From NCBI GenBank assembly GCA_030425805.1, contig JAUHZC010000003.1, forward strand, positions 701 through 64,700: 64,000 bases of DNA. The letters run 5' to 3'. Below, piece by piece: positions 13,416 through 54,804 of this stretch; the first letter of the stretch is position 1; every line of letters starts with the position of its first letter. Origin of the DNA: Alphaproteobacteria bacterium (GTDB taxonomy: Bacteria > Pseudomonadota > Alphaproteobacteria > JAUHZC01). The notes below the pieces were generated by a model. It did no database searches. It saw only the letters and a list, made by a program, of their open reading frames with translations, and had not been told where the DNA came from. A program made the position numbers and the translations under genes.

Positions 13416-15239
13416 GTGGTTCGGGTGTCTTTAGCCCCATTGCTTTATTACTACCAACGAGAAATGAATTACCTCCGCAATGCGGGGCAGCGGTTTGCGC
13501 AACAATACCCAAAAATTGCCAAGCGCTTGGAGCTTGATCTTCAGGGATCTAGTGATCCCCATGTGGAGCGTCTCTTGGAAAGTTTTGCCTTTCTAACAGG
13601 AAAGATCCAACGGGATCTTGATGATCAATTCCCTCGTGTTGCTCAAAATCTCTTGAATGTTCTGTATCCCCACATGATGCAGTCCATGCCATCCACAACA
13701 ACACTTTGCTTCAAGCCAGATCCAGATCAAGCCCCTCCAAATGTTGGTATTGTCATTCCGCGCTATTATCCTATGTTTGCTGAGGTTGGGGAAGAGAATG
13801 AAGCATGTTGGTATCGCATTACACAAACGATTGAGCGTTACCCGTTAGAAGTGGAGAAAGTCCGTGTCTGTGGCCCGAGTGATCTTGGCTTGACTGGAAA
13901 GCGAGCTGTTTCTGAGCAGTGCCTTCATATTAAGTTTGAGGACATCTCTAGTATCCATATTTACAATCACATGCCAAAGAAAATTTGCATGCACTTGAGT
14001 GGAGATCCTCGGACAAAGCACTTGATTCTCCAGGCTCTTCTCTCCCAAGAGAATATTCAAATCCTTTGCGGAGACTTGAGTAAGGGCGAAGAAAATATGG
14101 AGGTTCTCCCCCGGGGAAGCCTGGTGCACCGTGGTTTTGAACAAGATGAATCCCTGCTCCTTCTTCCAGAAACTTATGGAGCTGGTCACCGCCTTTTAGA
14201 CGAGTTTTTCCACTATCCAGACAAATACATGTACCTTGATGTGGAAAATATTCCATATAACCTCTGTGAAGAGCAACTGGATCTTGTCTTTTCCCTACCC
14301 CGAGATTTTGAACTCAAAAACGGCCCACTCGATAAAGATACAATCATGTATGGTTGTGCCCCTGCCGTGAATCTCTTTCCTGTACTCACAGAGCCTGTTT
14401 CTCTCAAGCACACCCAAGTTGAGTATCGTCTTGTCGGAGATTATCGACGGGAAAACAGTGTTGAAATTCATTCCATCCACCGTGTGCTCGGCGCGAGTGA
14501 TGATCAGGATGAACCTTTTGAAATGGAACCCTATTTCAGCCTCCGCCACCAATCCTATAATAAAAATGGATCTTTTTGGCATGCGCGCCTCGTGCCCATG
14601 GAAATGAACAATGTTCAAGGAACGGATGTTCTGATTTCATTTGTCGATGCTGCTTTTAACCCCATCACCTCTCCCGTCGAAACAGTCTATGGGGAAGTCA
14701 TCTGCACAAATCGTGCAGCAACGCATATGATTGGTGCAAATACAACTTTTGCTAATGATGGGGATAGTGTCGAGGGTTACACTGTTACATGTATTGATAA
14801 ACCGACTTCTCAGGTTTACCCAGCCTTGGATGGACGAAATCAGTGGAAACTGATCTCATCACTTGCCCTAAGCCATCTCTCCCTCGCTGACCAAAAAGAT
14901 GGTCTAAAGCGCCTCCAGGAAACGCTCCTCCTCCATTGTCGCACGCCAGAGCAATACAGTATCGTTGATGGACTTGAGAAAATGACCATTAAAGATAGCG
15001 CCCACCGCTTTGGTAATGAGGCTTGGCGGGGCTTTGTACAAGGCATGGACATTGATATTCACATGGATGAGCAAAATTTTGCAGGCACAAGTTCTTTTCT
15101 GTTCTCTGAAATTTTGAGTTATTTCTTTGGTGAATATGCTGGTATGAACAGCTTCACCCGCCTGAATTATTATAACACCCAACAGAAAGGAGTGCGTCAC
15201 CGATGGCCAGCCCGCAGCGGAAATCGCGCCCTTCTATAG
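13416..15239 (+). CDS. tssF: type VI secretion system baseplate subunit TssF (ImpG/VasA family)
   Basis: The N-terminus 'LLYYYQREMNYLRNAGQRFAQQYPKIAKRLEL...DPHVERLLESFAFLTGKIQRDLDDQFPRVAQNLLNVLYPH' matches the highly conserved TssF N-terminal block (cf. 'LLxYYNxELxYLRExGxEFAxxxPKIAxRLxL...DPYVERLLEGFAFLTARVxLKLDxEFP'). 607 aa, which is typical TssF length. Confidence 0.8.
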   Translation: MVRVSLAPLLYYYQREMNYLRNAGQRFAQQYPKIAKRLELDLQGSSDPHVERLLESFAFLTGKIQRDLDDQFPRVAQNLLNVLYPHMMQSMPSTTTLCFKPDPDQAPPNVGIVIPRYYPMFAEVGEENEACWYRITQTIERYPLEVEKVRVCGPSDLGLTGKRAVSEQCLHIKFEDISSIHIYNHMPKKICMHLSGDPRTKHLILQALLSQENIQILCGDLSKGEENMEVLPRGSLVHRGFEQDESLLLLPETYGAGHRLLDEFFHYPDKYMYLDVENIPYNLCEEQLDLVFSLPRDFELKNGPLDKDTIMYGCAPAVNLFPVLTEPVSLKHTQVEYRLVGDYRRENSVEIHSIHRVLGASDDQDEPFEMEPYFSLRHQSYNKNGSFWHARLVPMEMNNVQGTDVLISFVDAAFNPITSPVETVYGEVICTNRAATHMIGANTTFANDGDSVEGYTVTCIDKPTSQVYPALDGRNQWKLISSLALSHLSLADQKDGLKRLQETLLLHCRTPEQYSIVDGLEKMTIKDSAHRFGNEAWRGFVQGMDIDIHMDEQNFAGTSSFLFSEILSYFFGEYAGMNSFTRLNYYNTQQKGVRHRWPARSGNRALL

Positions 15240-16240
15240 GGGAATATCTCTTTGAGGAGCCCTATAAGTTTGACTTTCACCAGGCTTTAAAAATCCTGGA
15301 TGCCCTTAATCCTAAGGGTGTTCCTGTTGGAGAAGGCGTCCTCCCTGAAAGGGAATCCGTGCAACTGAGATCTCGGGTTTTTTTGGGTAGCTCTCCGAGC
15401 CAGCTCCAACAACTCCTGCCAGGACATCGACTGGATCCTCCTAAACTTGAAGTGAATTTTATGGGAATAGCAGGAGAATCTGGCCCCCTACCTGCTGTCT
15501 ATGCTGAAATGCTTCTTGAGCGCAAAGCTAAAAAAGATCACGCAATGGACGATTTTCTCCAGATCTTTAACCATCGGCTTCTCTCAATGGTTGCAAGAAA
15601 TGGGCGTAAGCACTGGCCAGCTCTTCATAATGGGCGTATTGAAGACAATCCTTTTGCTGATACCTTGCTTTCTTTGTCAGGGATGTTTTTCCTCAAAGAT
15701 AGCCCTCTGAAAACTATTGAAAATCGGAGTTTCCTTCCCTACACAGGGATGCTTTGGGATCAACGATGTTCAGCACGTTCCCTCCAGGACATGATAAGAA
15801 ATTTCCTCCAAGTCCCCGCAGCCGTAAAATCTTTCATTGGCAAATGGCATCATATTCCAGGAAATGCCCAAACACGCATCCACTCTGTGTATGAAAAAGG
15901 ACAAAATCACCGCCTTGGAGAAACAGCTACACTAGGAGATCGATACTGGGATCAAGCCGCTGAAATTCTTGTAGAGCTTGACCTTGAGAAGTTTGAGCGA
16001 TGGGAAAGTCTCTTACCGGGCCAAATTGCTTGGTCGCGTGTGATGACACTGATTCGCTCAGCTGTTCCCTCCCAAATCCAGGTCCAAGTTAAGTTGACTC
16101 TCTCTCAGAAACAATTCAAACCCACCCGACTTGATCAGCAATCTCCCCTCGGCTGGGGAAGTTTTCTTGGCTCCCCAAAAAAAACAAAAGAAAGCTTCGG
16201 AATCAGTGGGGAGTTTTGTCAGAATCTAGAATTATACTAA
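15203..16240 (+). CDS. tssG: type VI secretion system baseplate subunit TssG (ImpH/VasB family)
   Basis: N-terminal 'EEPYKFDFHQALKILD' matches the TssG hallmark 'EPxRFxFFQAVRLLE'. 345 aa. Overlaps the tssF stop, the usual tssF-tssG coupling. Confidence 0.75.
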   Translation: MASPQRKSRPSIGEYLFEEPYKFDFHQALKILDALNPKGVPVGEGVLPERESVQLRSRVFLGSSPSQLQQLLPGHRLDPPKLEVNFMGIAGESGPLPAVYAEMLLERKAKKDHAMDDFLQIFNHRLLSMVARNGRKHWPALHNGRIEDNPFADTLLSLSGMFFLKDSPLKTIENRSFLPYTGMLWDQRCSARSLQDMIRNFLQVPAAVKSFIGKWHHIPGNAQTRIHSVYEKGQNHRLGETATLGDRYWDQAAEILVELDLEKFERWESLLPGQIAWSRVMTLIRSAVPSQIQVQVKLTLSQKQFKPTRLDQQSPLGWGSFLGSPKKTKESFGISGEFCQNLELY

Positions 16241-41593: not shown

Positions 41594-42133
41594 ATAGATC
41601 GTTCTCGTCGCCCAAATCCACGCCAAGCTGGTCCTCGTATCAACCGGGACATTCGTGTTGATAAGATTCGCCTCATCGGTCCCGATGGAGAGATGATAGG
41701 CGTTGTATCCCTGGACCAAGGGCTTGAGCTTGCTCAACAGCATCGTCTTGACCTTGTAGAAGTTTCTCCAAATGCAGATCCTCCTGTATGTAAGGTCCTT
41801 GATTACGGGAAGTTCAAGTATGAAACCCAAAAAAAGCAATCGGCTGCCAAGAAAAAGCAGAAGACCATTGAAGTGAAAGAAGTTCAACTTCGTCCTGCCA
41901 TCGAAGAAAATGATTATCAGGTTAAGAAAAATCGTGCCTACAAATTTCTTGAAAGCGGGAATAAAGTCAAAGTGACTCTCCGATTTCGGGGTCGTGAAAT
42001 GGCTCACCAAGAAATTGGAATGGAGCTCATGAATCGCCTCAAAGGGGATTTGGAAGAAGTCTCAAAAGTCGACCACGAGCCCTCCCGAGAAGGGCGTCAA
42101 ATGATTATGGTGCTTAGCCCTGCTAAACCTTAG
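41594..42133 (+). CDS. infC: translation initiation factor IF-3 (probable non-AUG start)
   Basis: C-terminal '[21 protein letters not shown]' IF-3 signature. The first in-frame ATG (41693) would truncate the conserved N-domain ('[21 protein letters not shown]'). An in-frame ATA/ATC 5-8 nt after an AGGAGA Shine-Dalgarno at 41583-41588 fits the known autoregulatory non-AUG start of infC. Confidence 0.8.
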
Positions 42134-42134
42134 T

Positions 42135-44825
42135 TTAGCGATGCTTTTCAAAAACCATTACGATTTCTGTTCCCTGGTCAGGTTGAGACCGGACTCTCAT
42201 TTCCCCCTGAGAGAGATCAATGATTTCTTTACAGTATGAGAGTCCAATTCCCATCCCTGAGGATTTTGTTGTAAACATTGGGTCAAATATATTCTCAAGA
42301 ACGTCTGGCTGCATCCCAGGACCATTGTCCTGTATTGCGACAACAACCTTATCCTCATCAACTTCAATTTCGATCTCAATTCGAAGCTGAGAGCCCCTGC
42401 GTCCTTGCCCACAAAAAGCCTCATAAGCGTTTTTGAACAGGTTATGCATGACCTGAATCATAGCTGATTTATGGGTAGAAATCAGAGCATCTTGTATCAG
42501 GCCCTTTAGGATAAAGATCTCCCCCTTTTCTTCAGGCGGGAGAGGATAAATATCGATAGCCTCTCGAAGAATATCCCCGATATTTTCTTTGTGAACAAAA
42601 AGTTCTTTGTTTGTTCCCTTCAACTGCCTGATTGAGAGCTGTTGAATCTGGGAAATGCGTGTCACTGTATTTCCAATTTCCTCGATATTTTTCTGCAACC
42701 CTTCAACATCTTCCTTGCTGCCCTTAATTTCAACCTTCTTTGCAATATTTTTAAGAGAAAATACACGCATTCCTAGGGTTGATAGAGGCGTAGAAAGCTC
42801 ATGAGAAATATAATTTGCTTGGTATTTTTCAAGCTGTTTTGCTGAAAACTCATCCCCCTCTTTTTTTCGAGAGAAGACCATTCCCATGAGGGATGAAAAA
42901 ATAATACTGAAAACAAAAAGTAAAATATCATTAGATGCGAAATCGAAACAGCTTCCTCCGCATAAAAGAATATACAAACCAAAGGCAAGTAGGCTCCCAC
43001 CTGCAAAAAGAATCATAAAAACACGCCAAGAGACGAGGAGAGCCATGAGAAAAAGCCCCAAAGTTAAATTTGTGAGCCCGAATGTATCTAGGTTTCCTAG
43101 AAGACCCTGCACCATCAAAGTGAAAGGAAGCGTTATCATGACAGTGAAATGCCAATAGGCTGTGAAATACCGCAAAAGACTCTTTGGCCAATATCCTTTT
43201 AGCAAGAGGAGAACACAGAGAAAGCCAGAAAATAGCTTGAGAAAAATCATCTCACCAGAAACCAGAGTTGATTTTTGGATCCACATGAAATTCGGCGCAA
43301 TGTAGACACACAGCACAAAAACGGAAAAGCCTGTAGCTGGAAGCCATTCTAACCTAGCTGGATTGAGAATTTCAGAAAAAGAAGGCTTCTTTTTGCTCGA
43401 CTCTCTTTGGATTCTTATGATTTTTTTCTGTGATTCAGGTGCAAACCTAGATTTTGGCTCGAAAAAAAAAAATCGCGTGAAGAAAACTACTGCGTTTCCT
43501 AGCATTCCAACAATAAAACCTGGAACATATGTTAAATCCACAAGATTCAAAACATCCCAAATGATAAAAGAAACAATCCCCCCGAGTACTGCATAAAGAA
43601 AGGTTTTCTCTGAAACTTTGATTCCAAAAATTGCAGCATAAAGCGGAACAACAGCAACTGGACTCCAAAAGCTCATGAAATAGACCATGATACTCAGGAT
43701 ATCCTTGAAAATGAGCGCAATAGCCATAGCAAAAAGAGCTGCAGAAGGAGTAAAAATCCAAATCCAGTTCCGCATACGCTTTTCATCTGATCTTGTTTTT
43801 TCTTTTAATCCAAGAACATCCCCCAAGAAAGTGGAAGTACTTAAGTTCAGAGCAGAGTCTGCAGATGACATAATAACAGCCATGAGGCCTGAGGCCGCAA
43901 TCCCCTTTACACCTATAGGCAAAAACTCTGAAATAAGATGAGGAAAGGCGAGCTTGGAATCAATATTTGGAAAAATAATATAGGCTGCAATCCCAATTAA
44001 CCCAATAAAGAAAAAGAAAGGAAACTCCAGAATTGCCGTCAAAATCATTGATTTAGACATTTGCTTAGGTCCCCGTGAAATGAAAAACCTGTGCAAAATT
44101 AGAGGGTTTAAAATCGGTAAGAATTGAGCAAAGAAATACGTTAGAAGAAGCCCTGTATCTGCTTTTGTATGTACAAAAGAATAGTGCGTTTCAGGGATTT
44201 GAGAAAAGAATTTTTGATATCCCCCAAAGTAGTCTAGCAAAAACATGCAAACTGAAGGAACGCTCACAACGATGAAGCAAAATTGCAAAACGTCCGTGAA
44301 CACAACAGCACGAACCCCCCCAAACATTGTATAAAAAAGAACGATTCCCACACTGAAAAGAACACCGAGATTAAAGGGAATATTTAAAAAATATTGAAAA
44401 ACAAATCCCATTGCTGAAACTTGTAATGCAAATGTTCCAAGGGTCTTAATAAGCGCACTTAATCCAATAATTTTCTTAGCATACTGACCATAAGCCTTTG
44501 CCCCCATATCCCCAGGAGTCATACATCCATGGAATCTTCCCATCTTGGGAATGACAACAACACCGAGAAATAAATCAGCAAATGCCTGCAGTGCTACAAG
44601 AATAAGGATAGGGTAACCGTACTCAAAAACACGGGTAGAAAGCCCTAGACTTGATCCGCCCCCCAACCAAGTAGCTGCCGTTGTACAAACAAGGACGGGA
44701 AGTGAAAAATTGCGATCTGCGACAGAGAAATCTTTTAAGGACTCAACTTTCTTGCCTCTTACAATAGCTACCCACAAGGTGCCGAGAAGAAATAATCCGA
44801 TAATACCTAAGTCAATATTGTGCAT
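42135..44825 (-). CDS. hybrid sensor: sodium:solute symporter (SSF) domain fused to histidine kinase (HisKA + HATPase_c)
   Basis: ~12-13 TM helices of SSF type in the N-terminal ~600 aa. H-box 'ISHELSTPLSTL'; N/G boxes 'HNLFKNAYEAF', 'QDNGPGM', 'GMGIGLSYC'. Confidence 0.8.
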   Translation of the reverse strand: MHNIDLGIIGLFLLGTLWVAIVRGKKVESLKDFSVADRNFSLPVLVCTTAATWLGGGSSLGLSTRVFEYGYPILILVALQAFADLFLGVVVIPKMGRFHGCMTPGDMGAKAYGQYAKKIIGLSALIKTLGTFALQVSAMGFVFQYFLNIPFNLGVLFSVGIVLFYTMFGGVRAVVFTDVLQFCFIVVSVPSVCMFLLDYFGGYQKFFSQIPETHYSFVHTKADTGLLLTYFFAQFLPILNPLILHRFFISRGPKQMSKSMILTAILEFPFFFFIGLIGIAAYIIFPNIDSKLAFPHLISEFLPIGVKGIAASGLMAVIMSSADSALNLSTSTFLGDVLGLKEKTRSDEKRMRNWIWIFTPSAALFAMAIALIFKDILSIMVYFMSFWSPVAVVPLYAAIFGIKVSEKTFLYAVLGGIVSFIIWDVLNLVDLTYVPGFIVGMLGNAVVFFTRFFFFEPKSRFAPESQKKIIRIQRESSKKKPSFSEILNPARLEWLPATGFSVFVLCVYIAPNFMWIQKSTLVSGEMIFLKLFSGFLCVLLLLKGYWPKSLLRYFTAYWHFTVMITLPFTLMVQGLLGNLDTFGLTNLTLGLFLMALLVSWRVFMILFAGGSLLAFGLYILLCGGSCFDFASNDILLFVFSIIFSSLMGMVFSRKKEGDEFSAKQLEKYQANYISHELSTPLSTLGMRVFSLKNIAKKVEIKGSKEDVEGLQKNIEEIGNTVTRISQIQQLSIRQLKGTNKELFVHKENIGDILREAIDIYPLPPEEKGEIFILKGLIQDALISTHKSAMIQVMHNLFKNAYEAFCGQGRRGSQLRIEIEIEVDEDKVVVAIQDNGPGMQPDVLENIFDPMFTTKSSGMGIGLSYCKEIIDLSQGEMRVRSQPDQGTEIVMVFEKHR

Positions 44826-45021
44826 GGTCTACTTTTGGTTACTCATAAATTCTACGCTCAATTTTTCTAAGAGACCACCTTTTTAAAATTTCACGGGATC
44901 CCTATATCTTAATTACTACATTTTTTTTATTTTTTTAAAGAGAGATTAGCATTTTTAGATCTAGGCAAAAAACTATGATATAAGAAAAAATTAGAAAAAA
45001 AATTCTGGGAGTGAAAAATAC

Positions 45022-47592
45022 ATGTCATATATCGACCTTTCAATTGTGGCTCTTTATTTGATAGGGACATTTATTGTTGGCCTATACTATGGAAAAAGAG
45101 AAGGCAAGTCATTACAACAGTTTGCGACAGGGAATAAAGACTTCTCCGTTCCCCTCATTGCAATCACTATCTTTGCAACCCTAACGGGTGGAAATAACGT
45201 TCTTGGAAATTCTGAGAAAGGATTTCGATACGGCATCATCTTTTATCTGATTGTCTTTGGAGATCCCGTCTACCGGTTGATTATGGCAAAATATTTTGCA
45301 CCACGATTTAGTCGTTTTCGTGACTGTATCTCTGCAGGTGACATCTTAGATAAAAGCTTCGGAAGGTTGGGGCGATGCATTGCTGGGGTTGCTGCTTTCA
45401 TGAAGTGCTCAGGAAGTGTAGCAGCTCAAATTGCAGGGCTCAGCATTGTACTTCAATACATGTCAGGAATTGATTACTTTACAGGTCTTGTGATCGTCAC
45501 ATTCCTCACAATTGCCTACTCTGCTTTTGGGGGAATCACCTCTGTTGTCTTCACAGACGTCATTCAGTTTGTAGCTTTGATTATTGCTGTTCCGCTTGTC
45601 TCAGCTCTCGCTGTTCATAAAGCGGGAGGCGCAAACGTTGTTTTTGAAACAACATTCATCACAAAGCCAGATTTCTCTTTTGAAGATGGAAGTTTTATTT
45701 TCACAATCTTCATGATCTACTGCATTCCAGAACTAAACCCTGTTTTGCTACACCGTCTTCTCATCTCCAGGAATCTTCGTTTCCTCTCTGCTTCTCTCCG
45801 GGCAGCAGCAGCCTTAGCGGTTCCTTTTGGCCTCGTTATGGCTTTGTTAGTAGGATCAGCATATATTCTTGATCCCACCATTGAGCCTAAGAGTGTTTAT
45901 CCGTACCTGATTGATACAATTCTGCCTGTAGGCTTGAAAGGAATTGCTATTGCAGGACTATTTGCAATTCTAATGTCAACAATTGACTCCTTTTTAAACA
46001 CAGCCTCTGTTGCCTTTGCCCAGGATATCTTGGAAGGATTTTTTCCCAAAAAGTTTAATGATCAAACCAAGAAGAAATATGCGCAGTCTACAACTGTAAT
46101 CATTGGTGCGATTGGTTTTTACATAGCAACTCAGTACAACAGCATTGTTTCAATTTTTCTTTTCTCAATGGAATTGTGGGTTCCACTTATGGTTGCTCCT
46201 CTCTATAGCGTAATCTTCAGATATAATGCGACTCAAAAAGATCTAATTTTTTCCTGTCTTGGGGGTGTTGTTGCACTTTACTCTGTAAAATTCAGCCCTC
46301 TTGGAAAAATCCCAGGATTAACTGTTTTTGCTGCATACTTAGGTAGCTTTTTAATGATGTTCAGGAGGGCACTGACATTTAAAAACCTAAAGGAGCTGCT
46401 GACACGACCTGCACGCCCAAGATCAATTGCTCTTGCAGAGAAAAAACGATACATCGTTCCCCAAAATATAGATGCCTTCTGCATTTTGATTGTTTTCTTC
46501 TATGCATTTTCTCCCTTCCTAGGAATCTACGAAAATAAAAATCTACTTTGGCTAGGAATGCATGTCTTGGGAGTTTCTTCTGCTCTTGCTCTCTTCTTTG
46601 GCCGACGTAATAACTTCAGCTTTAAACCTCTTATTCAGCCTTTTGTTATTATGACAGGAGCTCTCATACCTTTCTTAATGGTCCATGTTAGTGGAAAATT
46701 GGAAACACTCTTCTTTATCATGCCAATCTTCCTCTATTTTTCCTCCATGATTGCCTTTAGTAAGTTTTTTCAAGGAATTGCTTTTAGTTTCACGCTTTCT
46801 AAGTTTGTAACTTATTACTATATCGGTCTTCCTGGACTTGGGGCTTTTTATGAAGTTGCTTTTCTCTCAACTGTTCTCATAAGTGGATTTTTTATCTCTC
46901 GTTTAACATTCCACAACCCAAGAGAACGTTATCAAGGTGCTGCTATTGCTATTTCAGAAATTGCCCATGAAGTCAGAACACCCCTCCAATCAATTGCTGT
47001 TGATTTTGGAATGTTAATTGAAGAACTTGGTATTGGTAAAAAAGAGTCTCCAAATCCACTCATTGGAAAAATATATCACAAGCTTAATACCGTATTCTCT
47101 TCTCTGGAACTTATTCTTCAAACCTTCCGAAAAGACGATAAAAATGATCAATATGAAATTATTAATCTGAGTAATCTTTTGCAAAATATCATTGAACAGT
47201 ACTCATTTCCCAAAGATGTCCACGTTACAATTGATGCTCAGTGCCAGAATCTTCACGTCAAAGGTGATGAAGCCGCGCTCCGTGGAGTCTTTTTAAACCT
47301 TATCAAAAATAGTGTTGAGGCTCAGTATGGGCAGGATAAAAAAGAGGTTAATCTCACTTTGAAACAATCTGCAAACTATGCAACAATCTTTGTTGAAGAT
47401 CGAGGTCCTGGTGTAGATCTCAAAGACTCAGAAGTCATTTTTGAGCCTTTCTACACCACAAAGAAATCTGGCACGGGGGTTGGTTTGAGCTACTGCTTAA
47501 AAATTATTCAAAATCAATCAGGTTCTATGTTCTATGAACCACGTCCTGGAGGAGGCGCTCGATTTGTCGTCCAGTTACCTGTGGGGTCATAA
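45022..47592 (+). CDS. hybrid sensor: sodium:solute symporter (SSF) domain fused to histidine kinase
   Basis: SSF-type polytopic N-terminus. H-box 'ISEIAHEVRTPLQSI'; 'LNLIKNSVEA', 'EDRGPGVD', 'GTGVGLSYC'. Divergent from the first SSF-HK across an AT-rich 196-bp region. Confidence 0.8.
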   Translation: MSYIDLSIVALYLIGTFIVGLYYGKREGKSLQQFATGNKDFSVPLIAITIFATLTGGNNVLGNSEKGFRYGIIFYLIVFGDPVYRLIMAKYFAPRFSRFRDCISAGDILDKSFGRLGRCIAGVAAFMKCSGSVAAQIAGLSIVLQYMSGIDYFTGLVIVTFLTIAYSAFGGITSVVFTDVIQFVALIIAVPLVSALAVHKAGGANVVFETTFITKPDFSFEDGSFIFTIFMIYCIPELNPVLLHRLLISRNLRFLSASLRAAAALAVPFGLVMALLVGSAYILDPTIEPKSVYPYLIDTILPVGLKGIAIAGLFAILMSTIDSFLNTASVAFAQDILEGFFPKKFNDQTKKKYAQSTTVIIGAIGFYIATQYNSIVSIFLFSMELWVPLMVAPLYSVIFRYNATQKDLIFSCLGGVVALYSVKFSPLGKIPGLTVFAAYLGSFLMMFRRALTFKNLKELLTRPARPRSIALAEKKRYIVPQNIDAFCILIVFFYAFSPFLGIYENKNLLWLGMHVLGVSSALALFFGRRNNFSFKPLIQPFVIMTGALIPFLMVHVSGKLETLFFIMPIFLYFSSMIAFSKFFQGIAFSFTLSKFVTYYYIGLPGLGAFYEVAFLSTVLISGFFISRLTFHNPRERYQGAAIAISEIAHEVRTPLQSIAVDFGMLIEELGIGKKESPNPLIGKIYHKLNTVFSSLELILQTFRKDDKNDQYEIINLSNLLQNIIEQYSFPKDVHVTIDAQCQNLHVKGDEAALRGVFLNLIKNSVEAQYGQDKKEVNLTLKQSANYATIFVEDRGPGVDLKDSEVIFEPFYTTKKSGTGVGLSYCLKIIQNQSGSMFYEPRPGGGARFVVQLPVGS

Positions 47593-48440
47593 TGATTATT
47601 GTTCCAAGTTTTGTTGTTGCCATAGATGATGATGTTCATTTTCTAGATAGTTTAAAAAATCTCATTAAAGCCTCTGGTTTTGAAGCAGAGACTTTTCACT
47701 CCCCTCATAGAGCATCTGACTTTGTTCTTGAAAGTGAGAAAACGCTTCAGGATATGGGGTTTTATGAAACATCACCCTATACAGACGATGGCTTTGAAAA
47801 TTTAGTAGAAAAGCTTTTAGACCAAAAGCCCCCGATCATAAGCGTTCTTAGTATTGATCATAACATGATTAATATTACGGGGCTTGAGTGGCTAGAGTTA
47901 CACCCTTTCCACGCCCAGAAAATGCTTGTTTCTGGGGTACTTGGGGATACAGGAGCAGTTGAAGCTTTTAATAGAAAAAAAGTGAACTTCTTTCTACAAA
48001 AAGGGTCTGCAGACTTTGTCTCAAGGTTCAAACAGGGTATGAGAGAGCTCAACTTTGATTTTTTCGCCCAGTTTACCAGCAAAAACTATAGAGAGGATGT
48101 GATCCAATCTCTTAAGAATCTCTATATGGAAAATCAGTTTGATTTTCTTTTACCTCGCTCAACAGCCCCGATTTTTGAAATTACAGCTGATAATCGAAAG
48201 GGAATTCTTCATGTTTTTGATAAAGATGAAAAACTCATACAGCTTCAATACGCAAAAGAGTCTGGTGCAGCAAAAGATGTTTTGGCACTTTTAGAGAAGA
48301 AGGATATGGCATTTTGTCATGGAATCCCTACTAATTCTCAAAAAGCATCCCCAAAATCTTGGACAGCAGAGGATATTGTTCAACTCACGAATGTTCCCAA
48401 AACGGAGACTTTTGTTCATATATCTTATGAACCAACCTAA
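47592..48440 (+). CDS. atypical receiver (REC)-like domain protein with unknown C-terminal domain
   Basis: Translationally coupled to the kinase (ATGA). The N-terminus has REC-like landmarks: acidic pair 'AIDDD', putative phospho-Asp 'VLSIDHNMINITG', and 'FFLQKG' Lys. The alpha2-beta3 insert is unusually long. The C-terminal ~140 aa are unassigned. Confidence 0.45.
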   Translation: MIIVPSFVVAIDDDVHFLDSLKNLIKASGFEAETFHSPHRASDFVLESEKTLQDMGFYETSPYTDDGFENLVEKLLDQKPPIISVLSIDHNMINITGLEWLELHPFHAQKMLVSGVLGDTGAVEAFNRKKVNFFLQKGSADFVSRFKQGMRELNFDFFAQFTSKNYREDVIQSLKNLYMENQFDFLLPRSTAPIFEITADNRKGILHVFDKDEKLIQLQYAKESGAAKDVLALLEKKDMAFCHGIPTNSQKASPKSWTAEDIVQLTNVPKTETFVHISYEPT

Positions 48441-48542
48441 TTTTTAACAAATTTAAAATTACCCCTGGTAAATTTTGATTCAGGGTCCTATCTCTCAGAA
48501 ATAAGTATTAAAATTTGTTTTGCTACAGAAGAATCTGTAGAA

Positions 48543-49025
48543 TTGCAATCAGGGGAGGAAAACGAAAGCCGTATGGATATTACTCAAAATGTCATTAAAA
48601 GAACAAAGCTATATTTGAAAGAAAACCGTCTTTCAATTCCTGAGATGGAGCTTCGGGCAGGTCTTCGCGAGGGAACCCTTCGTAATCTTCTGTATGGGCG
48701 TGTCAAGAACCCCACTATTGGAACACTCTATAAAATGTCACGAGCTATGGATACTTCCATAGAAACACTTATCTCTGATCCTGAAAAAAGTCTTTATCAA
48801 AAAGAAATTGATTTGCTCATTAAAATTGCACACAAGGTCTTTCCGCCCATGAAGACTGAAAATGCAGAGAAAGATGATATTTTGAAGATGATTTGTGACA
48901 TTTACGACTATAGTGAGCGCACACCAAATAAGGAACTTGATGATAATTTCTTTCAATTTTCATTAGATAGATACTATCGAGAAAAAGAAAGCCCTGGTCA
49001 GCCTCAACCTAAAGACTTCAAGTAG
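48543..49025 (+). CDS. XRE-like helix-turn-helix protein
   Basis: 'MELRAGLREGTLRNLLYGRVKNPTIGTLYKMSRAMDTSIETLI' HTH_XRE-like. Paralogous to 50074..50523. Confidence 0.5.
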   Translation: MQSGEENESRMDITQNVIKRTKLYLKENRLSIPEMELRAGLREGTLRNLLYGRVKNPTIGTLYKMSRAMDTSIETLISDPEKSLYQKEIDLLIKIAHKVFPPMKTENAEKDDILKMICDIYDYSERTPNKELDDNFFQFSLDRYYREKESPGQPQPKDFK

Positions 49026-49960
49026 TCATCAAAAGAAGAAAGCTCTAGTCCTAAGAAGCCTAACTCTTTTTCATTGAGCCGGCTGTAGTAGAAAGTGCTA
49101 TCACAATTTCCCCTGACTTTGTGTAGAGGGGGTAGCTTTATGTCCCAAAAGGAAAAAGCTGGTGCAAGTTTGCGTTGCTTTATTTTCTCAACATCGGCAG
49201 TAGAAGCTCCTTTTTGAGCCATATCTTCAGCCATAAGATCAAAATCACTACCTTCATAGATGAGAAGAGCTGAAGTTTTTCCTTTTTGATCAATGAAAAA
49301 CCTGGATCCACGTGTACAGAGCGTACAATATTCAATCATGGGAGATGAAAAAAACCCTTGTTCCATTTCATCTTGAAATAAGGCTTGGTAAGGCCTGCTC
49401 TCTATAATTTTCCTATTTAACTTTCCCATGTAACGCCGGTATAAAGCCTTAAAAAAAAGTTCTGTTTGAAGGGGAATAAGGCTCAAAACCCTCTCCATAG
49501 CATCCCTTGACCCCTTTCCAACAAAACAATCTATCGTGCCTTCATTGAGGTGCTCAATGGCATCTTGATAGCTCTGGGTCCCTGTCAGCATGACTTTACG
49601 TAATGGCTTTTCCAAAGGGAGTTCTTTAAAAAGAGTCAACCCATCCATGACTGGCATTCTTAAATCAGCAATTAAAATCGATGTCATTGCATACCGATTT
49701 TTTTGAGCTAGGATTTTTAAAAAAGTTTTTTGCTCAAGAACATAAGCGTTATGGCCTGTCCACTCTTTCCAAACCCACTCGGCAGGGCAGGGTTCTTTTT
49801 TAAGATAAGATAAAAAGTTGTATGGATCCGTAAAAGCCTTTGCTCGCAAACCTTCTTCCTGAAGTGCGCTCTCAAAGGAATCACAAAACTCAGGGCTATC
49901 ATCAACAGCCCCGATAAATGTTGGATGATAAAGGAGAAGGTCGTTATTTCTCATATTCAT
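49004..49960 (-). CDS. atypical receiver (REC)-like domain protein with unknown C-terminal domain (paralogue of 47592..48440)
   Basis: 'GAVDD', 'ILIADLRMPVMDGLTLFKEL' (phospho-Asp region), 'VMLTGT', 'CFVGKGS'. Shares the long insert and an unassigned C-terminal domain with its paralogue. Confidence 0.5.
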   Translation of the reverse strand: MNMRNNDLLLYHPTFIGAVDDSPEFCDSFESALQEEGLRAKAFTDPYNFLSYLKKEPCPAEWVWKEWTGHNAYVLEQKTFLKILAQKNRYAMTSILIADLRMPVMDGLTLFKELPLEKPLRKVMLTGTQSYQDAIEHLNEGTIDCFVGKGSRDAMERVLSLIPLQTELFFKALYRRYMGKLNRKIIESRPYQALFQDEMEQGFFSSPMIEYCTLCTRGSRFFIDQKGKTSALLIYEGSDFDLMAEDMAQKGASTADVEKIKQRKLAPAFSFWDIKLPPLHKVRGNCDSTFYYSRLNEKELGFLGLELSSFDDYLKSLG

Positions 49961-50073
49961 CTCTTTATTTTATAATTATAACTTGAATACTTGAAAATTT
50001 TATTAAAATTTCCTTGGTGAGAAAATTTAAGCTAAGAATATATACAATTTAAATCACTGAGAAGATAAAAACT

Positions 50074-50523
50074 TTAGGCATCTTTGCTTCCCGCTCCCTT
50101 ATGAGACATGAGAAATTTTTCTTTTAAATATGCAATAAAAGCCGCATCTAGTTGATGATTTTTCCCATATACAAGGGCTTCCCACAACAGATTTGAAAAA
50201 TCACGGTAGCTTCCTCCATTTTCTAAAACAAAGGGAAGGAGGTATTTGCTTGCAATATTGATGTTACGAAACTCTAGAGATTTATACTGATCATGATCTT
50301 CTAAAAGGTCATTTATCGTAAGATCCAGAGCCTCTGACACCCTTACAAGCACATGCAAAGAGGGATTTTTGGTGTTGCCATTGAGAATATTTTTCAAAGT
50401 CTGGGGTTTGAGTCCGAGGCTTCTCTCAAACTCAGTCAAAGTATACTTATTTTCAGCCAAGTGGCGAGAAACCTTTGTTTTGAAGTTATCTATATGGCTC
50501 ATTCCAACCTCGCTAGATTTCAT
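50074..50523 (-). CDS. XRE-like helix-turn-helix protein (paralogue of 48543..49025)
   Basis: 'LTEFERSLGLKPQTLKNILNGNTKNPSLHVLVRVSEALDLTINDLL' HTH_XRE-like. Confidence 0.5.
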   Translation of the reverse strand: MKSSEVGMSHIDNFKTKVSRHLAENKYTLTEFERSLGLKPQTLKNILNGNTKNPSLHVLVRVSEALDLTINDLLEDHDQYKSLEFRNINIASKYLLPFVLENGGSYRDFSNLLWEALVYGKNHQLDAAFIAYLKEKFLMSHKGAGSKDA

Positions 50524-50643
50524 TATAACCTTTTTTTTTAAAAAAAATAAAAAAAAACTTGAAAACGATTAGAATATAACCATATAACACCTAATAAAAT
50601 TATATTTTTTTAATTCAATGTATAGTTAGGTATAGGTTTAACA

Positions 50644-51279
50644 ATGAGGCTTAAGTTTAATATAGAAAAGGAATTTATAGTTCAATTCCAAAAATATTCG
50701 ACTTTGGAGGTTGTCTATAAAGGTGAGCAGGGTACTGGAAGGTGCGTTATCACTCTCCCAGGCAGCGAAAGGATCTGCGATGCTTGCTCACACTCTCTTC
50801 TTAAAACGGTTGGAGAAATAAGCGAAATCACCTTCGAAAGCACTGCTCTTCAAAATTTTGAAGAAAAGCATAAAATCTACTTTGAGGCTCTCAGTCTCGG
50901 AGATATGGATGTTTTGCATGAAAATCCAGAGATTCTTGATAATTATGCAAGTCTACAACTTGATTGCTGGAAATCTTTTCTGTCTTCTCTTTATAAATTT
51001 ATCGAGAATTATTGGCCCAATCAGAAAAAAAGAGGCTGGGTCATTACATCTTCTGAGATGGATATCCTCTTTTTAAAGAATGCTTCCCCTCTTCTGTGTG
51101 GAGATCAATTCACTTATATTGATAAAAAGAAGAAAGAGGTTTTTGTCTCTGTCGTCGTAAATACGCAAAAAACAGATCCAAAAGTCGTTAACATTTCTTA
51201 TCCAACGCTGGAAGAGCGTCAGAAATTTGTTCCAAATTCCAAGGTCATTATGCCGAATGGGGCTATAAAGCCCCTTTAA
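50644..51279 (+). CDS. hypothetical protein
   Basis: 211-aa ORF with no recognisable domain, flanked by AT-rich intergenic DNA. Coding status supported only by its length. Confidence 0.35.
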   Translation: MRLKFNIEKEFIVQFQKYSTLEVVYKGEQGTGRCVITLPGSERICDACSHSLLKTVGEISEITFESTALQNFEEKHKIYFEALSLGDMDVLHENPEILDNYASLQLDCWKSFLSSLYKFIENYWPNQKKRGWVITSSEMDILFLKNASPLLCGDQFTYIDKKKKEVFVSVVVNTQKTDPKVVNISYPTLEERQKFVPNSKVIMPNGAIKPL

Positions 51280-52163
51280 AGAACTTTTTCTGTTCCGTCA
51301 TTCACAATAGAAAGGAAACGGTCTAATTCTTCAAAAGAATTAAACTGAATTTCGATCTTCCCCCCTTTACCCTCTGATTTTAGGCCAACCGGGAGATTGA
51401 GTTGCTCAGAAAGCGTTTGAGCAATTTGCCCTAACTCTCCCTGAGGAAGTTCATCAGATCGTGATGAAGTCTGCGCTCTTGTCTTTGATTTTTGCTTTTC
51501 AGGATTTTGGCAAAGGGCTTCTGTTTGCCGCACATTCAATCCCTGACGAATCACAGTCTTTGCTGCTTCTTCAGGATGAGGATGTCCAAGAAGGGCCCGG
51601 GCATGCCCCGCAGAGAGTTTTCCCTCTCTCACAAAGATTTTCAAAGCTTCTGGCAAATTCTGAAGACGAAGAAGGTTTGCGATATGGCTACGGCTTTTCC
51701 CAAGAATTTTTGAAAGTGTTTCTTGGGTATAAGAAAACTCTTCCATCAATCGCTGATACCCCAAAGATTCTTCCATAGGATCAAGATCTTCACGCTGGAT
51801 ATTTTCCAACAAAGCCATCTCAAGGCTTTGTTTGTCATCTAAATCTTTGATAACGATTGGAACTGTTTCAAGCTGTGCGAGCTTTGAAGCCCGCCATCGA
51901 CGCTCCCCAGCTATAATTTCATATCGATCCCCAAGTTCTCGCACGACTATGGGCTGAATAACCCCATTTTCTTTGATAGAATCTGCAAGCTCTTGCAAAG
52001 CTGTTGGAGCTATGGTTTTTCGTGGCTGATATTTTCCAGGAATCAACCGATCGAGGCTTACCTCTTTCAATTGGTCTTTTTCCTGGGGAAGATCAGGTCC
52101 CAAAAGGGCTGAAATTCCTTGTCCCAAGGGTTTTTTCTTAAGCGACCTGACTGTGGTGACCAT
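51276..52163 (-). CDS. parB: chromosome partitioning protein ParB
   Basis: 'IAGERRWRAS' ParB box and an HTH region. Downstream of parA. Confidence 0.9.
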   Translation of the reverse strand: MVTTVRSLKKKPLGQGISALLGPDLPQEKDQLKEVSLDRLIPGKYQPRKTIAPTALQELADSIKENGVIQPIVVRELGDRYEIIAGERRWRASKLAQLETVPIVIKDLDDKQSLEMALLENIQREDLDPMEESLGYQRLMEEFSYTQETLSKILGKSRSHIANLLRLQNLPEALKIFVREGKLSAGHARALLGHPHPEEAAKTVIRQGLNVRQTEALCQNPEKQKSKTRAQTSSRSDELPQGELGQIAQTLSEQLNLPVGLKSEGKGGKIEIQFNSFEELDRFLSIVNDGTEKVL

Positions 52164-52917
52164 GTGACATACCTCTTATTTTGTGAAGAATCTCTTTCGC
52201 CAGGCGAATATAAGCCATGGATCCATGGGATTTTACATCATAAACCATCACGGGCAAACCATGGGAAGGAGCTTCTGAAACCCTTGTACTCCGAGGGATT
52301 TTTGAGTCAAAAAGATGCTCTGGAAAATAGGAACGAACTTCTTCTTCAACATGCTGTGCAAGGGCATTGCGGCTATCATACATGGTGAGAATGATCCCCA
52401 GAATCTCAAGATCTGGGTTATAGTTGTTGTGAATCCGCCGGAAAGTTCGCAGAAGCTGCGTCATTCCCTCTAGAGCAAAAAACTCAGCTTGGAGAGGAAT
52501 TAAAATATATTGGGAGGCAATGAGAGCATTAATTGTCAAAAATCCAAGTGAAGGAGGACAATCAAAAATCACAAAGTCAAAATCATGCCCATTTAAAATC
52601 TTTTTCAAGACATACAACCCCTCATCTACGTGAGGAAGCTCCACTTCAGAAGCTGAGAGATCCTGGGTTGAGGGCAAAACATACAAATTCGGAACTGAAG
52701 TTGAAACAACAGATTCTGAGAGTGTTTGCTCTCCTGTGATGACCTGATAAACACCTCCTCGGCGTTCTGAGGCAGAAATACCAAGGCCTGTACTTGCATT
52801 TCCCTGGGGGTCTAAGTCAATCAACAAGACACGCTTATTGATCGCCGCCATTGCGGTCGCAAGATTAATTGCTGTTGTCGTCTTTCCAACGCCACCCTTT
52901 TGGTTGGCAATCGTCAT
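52138..52917 (-). CDS. parA: chromosome partitioning ATPase ParA
   Basis: Deviant Walker A 'ANQKGGVGKTTTAINLA'. The start is taken at the internal ATG (MTIANQKGG), which avoids an overlap with rsmG. Confidence 0.9.
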   Translation of the reverse strand: MTIANQKGGVGKTTTAINLATAMAAINKRVLLIDLDPQGNASTGLGISASERRGGVYQVITGEQTLSESVVSTSVPNLYVLPSTQDLSASEVELPHVDEGLYVLKKILNGHDFDFVIFDCPPSLGFLTINALIASQYILIPLQAEFFALEGMTQLLRTFRRIHNNYNPDLEILGIILTMYDSRNALAQHVEEEVRSYFPEHLFDSKIPRSTRVSEAPSHGLPVMVYDVKSHGSMAYIRLAKEILHKIRGMSHGHHSQVA

Positions 52918-52922
52918 TACTG

Positions 52923-53552
52923 TCACGTAGCTTGCTCCCCGGGTTTCAAATTCCACACCTTTATTATAGTCGTATGAAAAAGAGAAGAAAGAGAAGACTT
53001 CTCATAAGAAAAAGAAAATTTCTCTTGGGCTTGCTGAACCTCTTCATCCACGCGGCTTCCCTTGAGAAAAAAACCTGTCATGGTATCTTTCCACTGAGGC
53101 TTTAAAAAATCAAAAATTGTCTCCAGTGATGCAAACCCACGAGCTGTAAACTGGGCATTCTCTGGGTAGGACACTGTTTCAACACGCTGATTGATAACAT
53201 GAACATTGCAAAGGTTAAGGCTCCGAATCACCATTTCAAGGAAATCACATTTTTTCTGGGTTCTTTCCACGAGATAAACATTCTCAAGCCCCAAAATTCC
53301 TAGGATAAGCCCTGGAAATCCAGCACCTGAGCCTAAATCATAAGTGGGTCGTGTAGGATCTAACTCTGCAATCAATGGCACACAATTAAGAATATGGCGC
53401 TCCCACAGAGCATCAAGATCCTTCAAGGACACCAGATTATATACAGTTGCCCACTTTCTCAAAAGTTTTTCAAAAGCCTCCAGATCATCCAAGACATGGG
53501 ATGTGTCTCGGATGGCGTAGGATTTCAGAAGCTTTTCGTATTTCCTATCCAT
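52923..53552 (-). CDS. rsmG: 16S rRNA (guanine527-N7)-methyltransferase RsmG (GidB)
   Basis: SAM-binding '[15 protein letters not shown]'. Classic position upstream of parAB. Confidence 0.85.
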
Positions 53553-54804
53553 TCATGGAATCAAAGAAATCATCGTTTGATTTTGTGAACTTAATCTTAT
53601 CCAATAGGAATTCCATTCCATCAGCAGGACCCATAGGATCCAAAATCCGACGGAGGACCCACATCCGAGAAAGCCTCTCTTTTCCAACGAGAAGCTCATC
53701 CTTACGGGTTCCAGAGCGTGTAATATCAATGGCAGGGAAGATGCGCTTATCAGAAAGCTTACGGTCCAGAACAATTTCAGAGTTACCTGTTCCCTTGAAC
53801 TCTTCGAAAATCACCTCATCCATACGGGAACCTGTTTCGATCAAGGCTGTTCCGATGATGGTCAAAGACCCCCCCTCTTCCACATTTCGGGCTGCACCAA
53901 AAAGACGTTTTGGACGCTGAAGGGCATGGGCATCAACACCTCCTGTAAGAACCTTTCCAGAGGAAGGAACACAGGTGTTATAGGCACGGGCTAAACGGGT
54001 GATAGAATCAAGGAGGATGACAACATCCTTTTTATGCTCAACAAGACGCTTTGCCTTTTCAATCACCATTTCAGAAACCTGAACATGTCGGCTTGCAGGC
54101 TCATCAAAGGTTGAGGAAATGACTTCTCCCTTAACGGAGCGAATCATGTCTGTCACTTCTTCTGGACGTTCATCCACAAGTAAAATAATCAAATGGACTT
54201 CAGGGTGATTCTTCTCAATAGCCTTTGCGAGCTCCTGAAGCATCACTGTTTTTCCTGTCCGAGGCGGCGCTGTCAAAAGAGCCCGTTGACCTTTTCCAAG
54301 AGGAGCGACCATATCAATGACCCGTGTCACTGCATGAGGATTGTCTCCCTCAGGCTCAATCTCCAGCTTTAGCTGATCTTGTGCAAAAAGCGGTGTCAGG
54401 TTATCAAAATTCAAACGATGACGGCTTTTTTCAGGCTCTTCAAAGTTAATTCTTGTGACACTTGTGAGTGTAAAGTAGCGCTCTCCCTCTTTCGGAGCAC
54501 GCATCTCTCCCTCGACGGTATCTCCTGTGCGAAGGCTATACTTGCGCACAATTTTAGGAGAAACATAAATATCGTCCGCACCTGGAAGATAGTTTGCACC
54601 CGCAGAACGGAGAAAACCAAACTGATCTTGAAGAAGCTCAATCACTCCACCCCCATAAATGGGATCTCCGCGCTCAGCGTGGGTTTTTAAGATTTCCACA
54701 ATCATATCTTGCTTGCGCAAATTGGAGGATTCTTCAATATTAAGAGACTCGGCTAGAGCCAAGAGCTCCGTCGGGCTTTTCGCCTTAAGATCTTGTATGT
54801 TCAT
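53545..54804 (-). CDS. rho: transcription termination factor Rho
   Basis: N-terminal '[24 protein letters not shown]'; CSD RNA-binding region; Walker A '[12 protein letters not shown]'; 419 aa. Confidence 0.9.

Follow-up and report, generated by a model that had tools for sequence, protein, structure and literature searches.

How might a signal that enters through a transporter-like membrane domain reach DNA when the response regulators on its way belong to a family without a DNA-binding domain? This question is raised by a low-GC locus at positions 42135-51279 of a 64-kb stretch of DNA (hereafter, the window) from contig JAUHZC010000003.1 of an Alphaproteobacteria bacterium (GCA_030425805.1). 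An original prediction, made from the sequence alone, had seen here a transporter-coupled two-component circuit in two paralogous sets, and domain and paralogue searches bore this out. Two divergent genes encode histidine kinases (HK1 and HK2) in which a full sodium:solute symporter (SSS, SLC5; Pfam SSF) domain is fused to a kinase core. They are accompanied by two paralogous receiver-domain proteins (RR1 and RR2) and two paralogous helix-turn-helix proteins of the XRE type (HTH1 and HTH2), as open reading frames (ORFs), Pfam matches and pairwise comparison agree. We propose that the locus probably encodes two paralogous Lqs-type two-component pathways, HK2 to RR1 and most likely HK1 to RR2, with SSS domains as input and XRE proteins as output. 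The features that carry this proposal are the following (sizes in amino acids, aa):

42135-44825, minus strand: HK1, 896 aa, predicted SSS-domain::LqsS-like sensor histidine kinase with phospho-accepting H675 (Pfam, profile, intact boxes)
43461-44825, minus strand: SSS (SLC5) transporter-like domain of HK1, residues ~1-455 (Pfam SSF, CHT1, a free-standing SSS protein of contig L126)
42861-43358, minus strand: second membrane block of HK1, residues ~490-655, with roughly 5-6 hydrophobic segments (phmmer, membrane-only profile, hydropathy)
45022-47592, plus strand: HK2, 856 aa, paralogous predicted SSS::LqsS-like sensor kinase with H649, divergent from HK1 (Pfam, profile)
47592-48440, plus strand: RR1, 282 aa, divergent LqsR-family response regulator (family profile, AlphaFold model against 6SY9)
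48573-49025, plus strand: HTH1, 150 aa (160 aa if read from TTG 48543), XRE/SinR-like helix-turn-helix plus C-terminal helical domain (Pfam HTH_26, SinR)
49004-49960, minus strand: RR2, 318 aa, typical LqsR-family response regulator (phmmer, family profile)
50074-50523, minus strand: HTH2, 149 aa (or 142 aa with Met8 at 50502 as start codon), XRE/SinR-like, upstream of RR2 (Pfam HTH_26 and HTH_3, model)

RR1 and RR2 as LqsR-family regulators

Pfam Response_reg recognized RR2 with an E value of 8e-11 and RR1 with just 0.013. A phmmer search with RR2 against 1.84 billion representative proteins revealed 1148 matches, the best of which were ~300-340 aa long and aligned near full length. In a 60-member alignment, D21, D99 and K149 (RR2 numbering) were invariant and T126 was present in at least 90% of the sequences; the C-terminal half was conserved as well, with EYY, W and YYY motifs. 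The Asp/Thr/Lys triad, a point that the original prediction had marked for checking, is present as D20/D21, D99, T126 and K149 in RR2 and as D12/D13, D89, S114 and K137 in RR1. The latter departs from the family by MI in place of MP after the acceptor Asp and by Ser in place of Thr (S114). The long alpha2-beta3 insert in the receiver domain, previously noted as unusual, is a trait of the family and was found in 60 of 60 aligned members, RR1 and RR2 included; in the RR1 model, it consists of a long alpha2 and an additional helix (residues 65-77).

The C-terminal domains had been described as matching nothing recognized and as a novel output domain, a claim that did not survive the profile search. 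The profile of the 60-member alignment matched residues 21-352 of 6SY9, the solved structure of Legionella pneumophila LqsR, end to end (E = 4.5e-113), while all other PDB matches covered the receiver domain only. After the profile had been rebuilt without the window sequences, RR2 scored 202 bits over positions 1-328 and RR1 scored 85-91 bits over positions 8-287, spanning both domains. With profile A1, which includes RR1 itself, the score of RR1 was 157 bits (E = 2.3e-40, 5.8 billion proteins). RR1 was also modeled with AlphaFold on the basis of the family alignment, and this model (predicted local distance difference test score [pLDDT] 82, predicted template modeling score 0.78) had 6SY9 as its top PDB match (E = 1.5e-13, template modeling [TM] score 0.62, 280 columns). 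The C-terminal half of RR1 alone gave no significant pairwise match. In word-index searches, RR2 retrieved itself alone and the family profile retrieved the two window regulators alone; the window proteins are singletons in a 15-billion-protein collection. On this homology, RR1 and RR2 can be securely predicted to be full-length LqsR-family response regulators, of which RR2 appears typical and RR1 divergent.

LqsR is the prototype of a regulator family with a C-terminal part without known output function (PMC3376566). PhcX of Ralstonia belongs to the same family, and 310 proteobacterial genomes encode an orthologue of it; the LqsR output domain forms a five-stranded antiparallel sheet that resembles the cyclase domain of PleD, with no activity detected (PMC10653808). 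The output of the family is reported as unknown, most recently in 2023 (PMC10653808), and the family as lacking a DNA-binding domain (PMC10653808, PMC3376566). Phosphorylation-dependent dimerization of LqsR is named in the title of a structural study to which PMC10653808 refers. Given the LqsR-family match and the published members, LqsR and PhcX, the C-terminal domain is one already known.

Transporter-fused kinases and their relatives

The predicted fusion was clear in both kinases. Pfam SSF matched HK1 with E = 3.5e-25 (profile positions 2-404 of 406) and HK2 with E = 4e-29, and HATPase_c matched with E = 4.9e-22 and 8.9e-22, respectively. Both kinases retain intact H, N, G1, F and G2 boxes, including H675 of HK1 and H649 of HK2, and neither protein has a receiver domain of its own. 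Among solved structures, the choline transporter CHT1/SLC5A7 was the best relative of the HK1 SSS domain (E = 3.8e-13), and MSSADS is identical and aligned in the two. This motif of transmembrane helix 8 (TM8), MS(S/T)xDS, is kept in the SSS domains and, by analogy with vSGLT and PutP, would carry the serines of the Na2 site.

A second membrane part, overlooked by the original prediction, follows the SSS domain as ~5-6 extra hydrophobic segments in the hydropathy plots of HK1 and HK2. For its comparison, LqsR loci were taken from a scan of species-representative genomes with a degenerate DNA pattern made from conserved family residues, which gave at least 120 loci. All 120 listed loci encode true family members (>195 bits) and come from Oxalobacteraceae, Burkholderiaceae, Legionellales, Coxiellaceae, Pseudomonadales, Gallionellaceae, Nitrococcus, Holosporaceae, Paracaedibacteraceae and others. 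A phmmer search with HK1 residues 471-660 matched 25 ORFs in the listed loci, 24 of which possess a kinase core; the 25th is cut by the locus edge. A profile of 30 kinases adjoining LqsR genes (7 of the 30 from loci also encoding a CqsA/LqsA-type synthase) matched residues 525-892 of HK1 (E = 3.7e-46) and 467-854 of HK2 (E = 3.7e-35). A membrane-only profile matched HK1 residues 527-648 (E = 1.2e-7) in an alignment that starts at position 62 of 190. By these profile matches, the second membrane block together with the core is homologous to LqsS/CqsS-type kinases, which links the locus as a whole to the Lqs system. HK1 and HK2 can be securely predicted to be tripartite, with the SSS (SLC5) domain at the N terminus, the second membrane block in the middle and the DHp/CA core behind it.

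An N-terminal SSS domain fused to a histidine kinase is also the architecture of the SLC5/STAC sensor kinases CbrA, CrbS/MxtR and RpuS (PMC7918813, PMC9100948), and HK1 and HK2 could on this ground be read as members of that family serving carbon-source control. We consider this highly improbable, since no STAC or PAS domain was found in either kinase at Pfam E ≤ 0.1 and the interval concerned is hydrophobic and LqsS-like, that is, a second membrane block in the place of the linker. The partner regulators, moreover, are of the LqsR family and neither NtrC- nor LuxR-type. Membership in the CbrA/CrbS family was rejected for this lack of STAC and PAS.

The combination of SSS domain, LqsS-like kinase and LqsR-like regulator recurs in other organisms. 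A metagenome scan with the SSS-domain alignment yielded 80 loci, to which four earlier contigs were added. In 54 of these 84 loci, an SSS domain is fused to a kinase matching the LqsS-like profile, mostly with the membrane block. An adjacent regulator, in contigs L126, L127 and L188 and in the window, was always of the LqsR family (5 of 5 cases). In L127, the fused kinase adjoins the LqsR-like regulator, and in L188, two tandem fused kinases precede it, one of which (L188_HKa) matched HK1 over the full length (E = 4.5e-141). The contig of the closest RR1 relative, L126, presents a split form with three genes in a row: a free-standing SSS protein of 475 aa (E = 4e-89 to HK1 residues 3-452), a kinase of 382 aa (E = 8.8e-42 to HK1 residues 514-893) and an LqsR-like regulator. 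Among the listed LqsR loci, a histidine kinase is the immediate neighbor of the LqsR gene in at least 65 of 110. The best kinase relatives were found in Nucleicultricaceae and Paracaedibacteraceae genomes, a weak hint that the bacterium of the window may be close to Holosporales.

Comparison with L188 also bears on the pairing of kinases and regulators. HK1 is nearer to a kinase of this contig (460 bits) than to HK2 (291 bits), and against the L188 proteins RR2 scored 53 bits, HK2 345 bits and RR1 22 bits. By these scores, HK1 and RR2 are the conservative members of their pairs and HK2 and RR1 the divergent ones. Since HK1 and RR2 are both conservative and HK2 and RR1 both divergent, HK1 is most likely the partner of RR2, a pairing to which the scores lend weak support.

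The kinases and regulators belong to the families that compose the Lqs system, which brings up canonical alpha-hydroxyketone quorum sensing as an alternative. The membrane block would then bind an autoinducer of the LAI-1/CAI-1 type, the CqsA/LqsA synthase would be encoded elsewhere in the genome and the SSS domain would be an accessory, for example for import or as a scaffold. A distant synthase gene would be nothing unusual, since a CqsA/LqsA-type aminotransferase was within two genes of the LqsR gene in just 13-14 of 110 listed loci, and the LqsR-family gene phcX is unlinked from lqsA (PMC10653808). We nevertheless hold this alternative to be unlikely. A profile of 13 CqsA/LqsA-like synthases (13 loci) had no match in the six-frame translation of the 64-kb window at E ≤ 10. 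In CqsS, the ligand-binding motifs lie in the first three helices (PMC3376566), where HK1 is not detectably conserved, and the conserved SSS fusion or adjacency points to a different or additional input.

Further arrangements were observed in the metagenome contigs. On the opposite strand of L126 lies another LqsS-like kinase (420 aa), which precedes a 286-aa protein resembling S-adenosylmethionine-dependent methyltransferases (Methyltransf_12, E = 1e-4) and not a regulator (pair at L126:1527-2387 and L126:199-1461, both minus strand); a 101-aa SSS fragment lies directly upstream of the intact SSS gene of the same contig. L123:6001-9453 encodes a 1150-aa protein (P0008) in which an SSS domain and an LqsS-like membrane block are fused to HD/HD_4 domains like those of RelA/SpoT-type hydrolases, with no kinase. 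This contig is rich in ankyrin-repeat genes, and its bacterium is apparently host-associated. A few loci thus reuse the membrane module with outputs of another kind, the HD domains of P0008 among them. At L124:620-2588, a 513-aa SSS gene is followed at once by a 146-aa gene for HATPase_c only, a pair that resembles a fused kinase after truncation or a frameshift.

XRE proteins, control regions and the low-GC locus

Pfam HTH_26 matched HTH1 (E = 4.9e-8) and HTH2 (E = 4.2e-10), and HTH_3 matched HTH2 (E = 5.9e-9). SinR was the best PDB match by sequence for both (HTH1, E = 2.4e-5; HTH2, E = 4.6e-4). An AlphaFold model of HTH2 (pLDDT 81.5, built from two sequences) shows a five-helix helix-turn-helix domain and a three-helix C-terminal bundle. 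The former had the DNA-binding domain of SinR as its best fold match (TM score 0.82, root-mean-square deviation [rmsd] 2.0), and the latter had no convincing structural match; fold matches of the model to full-length SinR, DdrO and Stl were weak (E ≥ 0.03, rmsd 8-12). No SinI-like gene was found in the locus. LvbR of Legionella, an XRE/BswR-like factor, was considered as a relative of HTH1 and HTH2 and dropped, as there was no such PDB match at E ≤ 1. In L166, the gene for an 865-aa protein that combines an SSS domain with the membrane block has a convergent neighbor, which encodes a 154-aa protein similar to HTH1/2 in both domains.

Two regulator-XRE pairs have been kept since an old duplication, and from this we infer a link between regulator and XRE protein. 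In six loci of Pseudomonadales/Alcanivoracaceae (L008, L018, L073, L094, L102 and L120), a gene for an Arc-like ribbon-helix-helix protein lies one to two positions from the LqsR gene. These proteins are 98-145 aa long and conserved (Pfam PF03869, best E = 7e-16). This lineage-specific pairing with an LqsR regulator parallels the XRE pairing of the window. Both gene arrangements are hints, no more, that DNA-binding proteins encoded by genes of their own may be partners of LqsR-type regulators. A wider conjecture, which we offer tentatively and hold to be unlikely, is that the LqsR family acts via small DNA-binding partners, SinR-like XRE proteins here and Arc-like ribbon-helix-helix proteins in some Pseudomonadales, and that SSS::LqsS-like kinases are distinct "trigger-transporter" sensors of solute flux, not of an alpha-hydroxyketone.

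HTH1 and HTH2 could also be unrelated local repressors, either autoregulators or silencers of an acquired island, with the LqsR-like regulators acting otherwise, for example by binding of a nucleotide or cyclic di-GMP to a degenerate GGDEF-like domain. The locus lies 6.5 points in GC content under its flanks, XRE repressors are ubiquitous in acquired DNA, HTH2 has generic matches to phage repressor families and XRE genes are not general neighbors of LqsR genes; the LqsR output domain, in turn, resembles the PleD diguanylate cyclase fold (PMC10653808). We regard this explanation as possible, though doubtful. Both regulator copies kept their XRE neighbor despite divergence to 26-31% identity, and the HTH1/2 relative recurs beside the SSS plus membrane-block protein in L166. 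Neither PADLOC and PHROGs scans nor a repeat search found mobility, phage-structural or defense genes, and no cyclase activity was found for LqsR (PMC10653808).

In the two Lqs-type pathways that we favor, the SSS domain would bind or transport a small solute, and its conformational cycle would be passed via the LqsS-like helices to the kinase core. The core would autophosphorylate at H675 (HK1) or H649 (HK2) and thereby set the phosphorylation of D99 (RR2) or D89 (RR1). By analogy with LqsR, the phosphorylated regulators would dimerize and act via their LqsR-type C-terminal domain, which has no DNA-binding fold. Each pathway would end at DNA with its adjoining SinR-like XRE protein, which the regulator would control through protein-protein contact.

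Several observations weigh against this reading. On the input side, the membrane block of HK2 alone was not significant against the membrane-only profile, and in HK1, conservation was not detectable over the first ~60 positions of the LqsS-type block (approximately its first two helices). The kinase of CbrA functions without its SSS domain (PMC7918813), so coupling of transporter to kinase cannot be assumed, and a CqsA/LqsA synthase could be encoded outside the 64 kb. An adjoining regulator is missing beside most fused kinases in the metagenomes. On the output side, no relatives of HTH1/2 were found among the 120 listed LqsR loci, and at most one XRE-type member was present among 90 small neighbors in 110 of them. 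The helix-turn-helix protein beside the L188 regulator is unrelated and CI/LexA-like. In the window itself, regulator and XRE genes are spaced by 113-132 nucleotides (nt) without translational coupling.

The locus consists of seven ORFs (ORF listing and translation) between infC and parB-parA-rsmG-rho; the order rho-rsmG-parA-parB is a weak sign of an alphaproteobacterium. HK2, RR1 and HTH1 are collinear as predicted, and the overlap at 47592 was confirmed; it is not the ATGA overlap described earlier, since the HK2 stop (47590-47592) and the RR1 start (47592-47594) share one base in TAATG. This overlap suggests translational coupling of HK2 and RR1. The second pair is inverted, as had been noted, with RR2 and HTH2 both on the minus strand, and its gene order is reversed as well, HTH2 lying upstream of RR2. 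The 3' ends of HTH1 and RR2 overlap convergently by 22 nt. For HTH1, ATG 48573 behind GGAGG is the more likely start over TTG 48543; HTH2 may start at Met8 (50502), behind GAGG. The NCBIfam scan added nothing more specific than Pfam for the locus proteins. The remaining features of the locus and its flanks are as follows:

41693-42133, plus strand: infC, left flank of the locus
44826-45021, no strand: divergent HK1/HK2 control region, 196 nt, 26.5% GC, with a T-rich tract at 44921-44939 and one TTAAAATTT site at 44883
50524-50643, no strand: divergent HTH2/ORF control region, 120 nt, 16.7% GC, with a T9/A8TA9 tract (sequence, GC)
50644-51279, plus strand: predicted ORF of 211 aa, no family match, 37.6% GC (ORF listing), with a 4-nt convergent overlap with the parB stop
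51276-54804, minus strand: parB-parA-rsmG-rho, right flank of the locus

The 211-aa ORF at 50644-51279 had no match in Pfam, NCBIfam, PADLOC or PHROGs. At the left flank, the infC ORF stops one base short of the convergent HK1 stop codon, and infC is not followed by rpmI-rplT. Read from ATG, it leaves the first ~20 positions of the IF3_N profile uncovered, consistent with an unusual start codon farther upstream.

There are exactly three copies of the 9-mer TTAAAATTT in the 64 kb (44883, 48508 and 50003), each in an intergenic region of the island (HK1/HK2, RR1/HTH1 and RR2/HTH2). We treat it as no more than a candidate operator, since three copies are what chance would give and the motif was selected post hoc. 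A search for a shared operator in the four intergenic regions returned AT-rich words only, and a promoter scan performed no better than on shuffled sequence. The poly-T/A tract noted at 50531-50565 is present in the sequence. Within it, 50537-50555 and the tract at 44921-44939 are near-identical A/T stretches in opposite orientation (TTTTTTTTATTTTTTTAAA), 89% complementary and, over 44 nt, 70%. The A/T tracts of both divergent control regions may represent curved or UP-element-like DNA.

The earlier suggestions of a duplicated and possibly acquired module were each upheld in part. Paralogy is evident between HK1 and HK2 (29% identity over 909 columns, E = 3e-89, 291 bits), between RR1 and RR2 (26% identity, confined to the N-terminal 146 residues, E = 1e-10) and between HTH1 and HTH2 (29% identity across both domains, E = 1e-16). 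Judged from 26-31% identity between the copies, the duplication is ancient rather than recent. As to acquisition, the GC content of the region is 38.3% versus 44.8% in the rest of the window, which makes it compositionally distinct; no other 9.1-kb stretch of the window is as low. GC content is 37-40% in all seven genes and 17-33% in the intergenic regions, in agreement with their description as AT-rich. GC composition was the single sign of acquisition, a qualified one: no integrase, transposase or other mobility gene was found in the region, no tRNA gene is adjacent (those of the window lie at 11.4 and 26.9 kb only) and no convincing direct repeats flank it. Origin from a defense system or prophage was rejected, as PADLOC and PHROGs scans gave no phage or defense families beyond generic helix-turn-helix matches. 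Elsewhere, the window encodes the type VI secretion proteins TssF (E = 2.9e-155) and TssG (E = 6.5e-71) at ~11.5-16.3 kb (probably 13416-15239 and 15203-16240), as well as ThyX, HrcA and heme-synthesis genes.

Known systems compared

In Legionella and Ralstonia, the LqsR family governs virulence and motility as well as switches of the life cycle. The two independently retained regulator/XRE pairs suggest a concrete hypothesis for the output step that is missing from accounts of its C-terminal domain. Transporter-fused versions of LqsS/CqsS-type kinases exist and are common in environmental metagenomes, so that solutes taken up by a transporter join the possible inputs of "quorum-sensing-type" kinases, and the SSS-domain sensor kinases gain a second, STAC-less architecture. 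A full-text search of the papers available found none that joins solute symporter, histidine kinase and LqsS. Although each part is of a known family, the combination of SSS/LqsS-like kinase, LqsR and XRE has not been described before.

With CbrA and CrbS/MxtR, the window kinases share an SSS-family domain as the N terminus of a histidine kinase, which may sense, transport or do both (PMC7918813). They differ from CbrA/CrbS by the absence of STAC and PAS domains, the second membrane block before DHp and the LqsR-family partner. The Na2 site is reported as lost in CbrA (PMC7918813), whereas the SSS domains of the window keep the TM8 motif. Like CqsS of Vibrio cholerae, HK1 and HK2 have a multihelix membrane sensor directly joined to DHp/CA. 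CqsS, however, is a hybrid kinase whose own receiver feeds LuxU/LuxO, whereas HK1 and HK2 lack a receiver and would have dedicated LqsR-type partners.

On the output side, HTH1 and HTH2 resemble SinR of Bacillus subtilis, which acts with its antagonist SinI (compare also DdrO and Stl), in having a SinR-like five-helix DNA-binding domain followed by a small helical domain. In contrast to SinR, the C-terminal three-helix bundle has no significant similarity to the helical hook of SinR/SinI (all fold E ≥ 0.015), and control by a partner is drawn by analogy. PhcX of Ralstonia solanacearum offers a precedent for an LqsR-family regulator that works outside an lqsA-lqsS-lqsR cluster and has an output mechanism reported as unknown (PMC10653808). 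Unlike the gene for PhcX, which adjoins phc quorum-sensing genes and has no adjacent gene for an LqsS-type kinase, the window keeps LqsS-type kinases in transporter-fused form.

The closest counterpart is the Lqs system of Legionella pneumophila (LqsS/LqsT and LqsR). Common to both are full-length LqsR-family regulators with the receiver insert and C-terminal domain, a kinase membrane block and core homologous to those of LqsR-paired kinases and one kinase gene directly followed by a regulator gene. In contrast to Legionella, the window contains no LqsA synthase or hdeD gene, and RR1 is unusually divergent. Its kinases are further distinguished by an extra N-terminal SSS domain of ~455 residues, and they occur in two sets, each beside an XRE protein.

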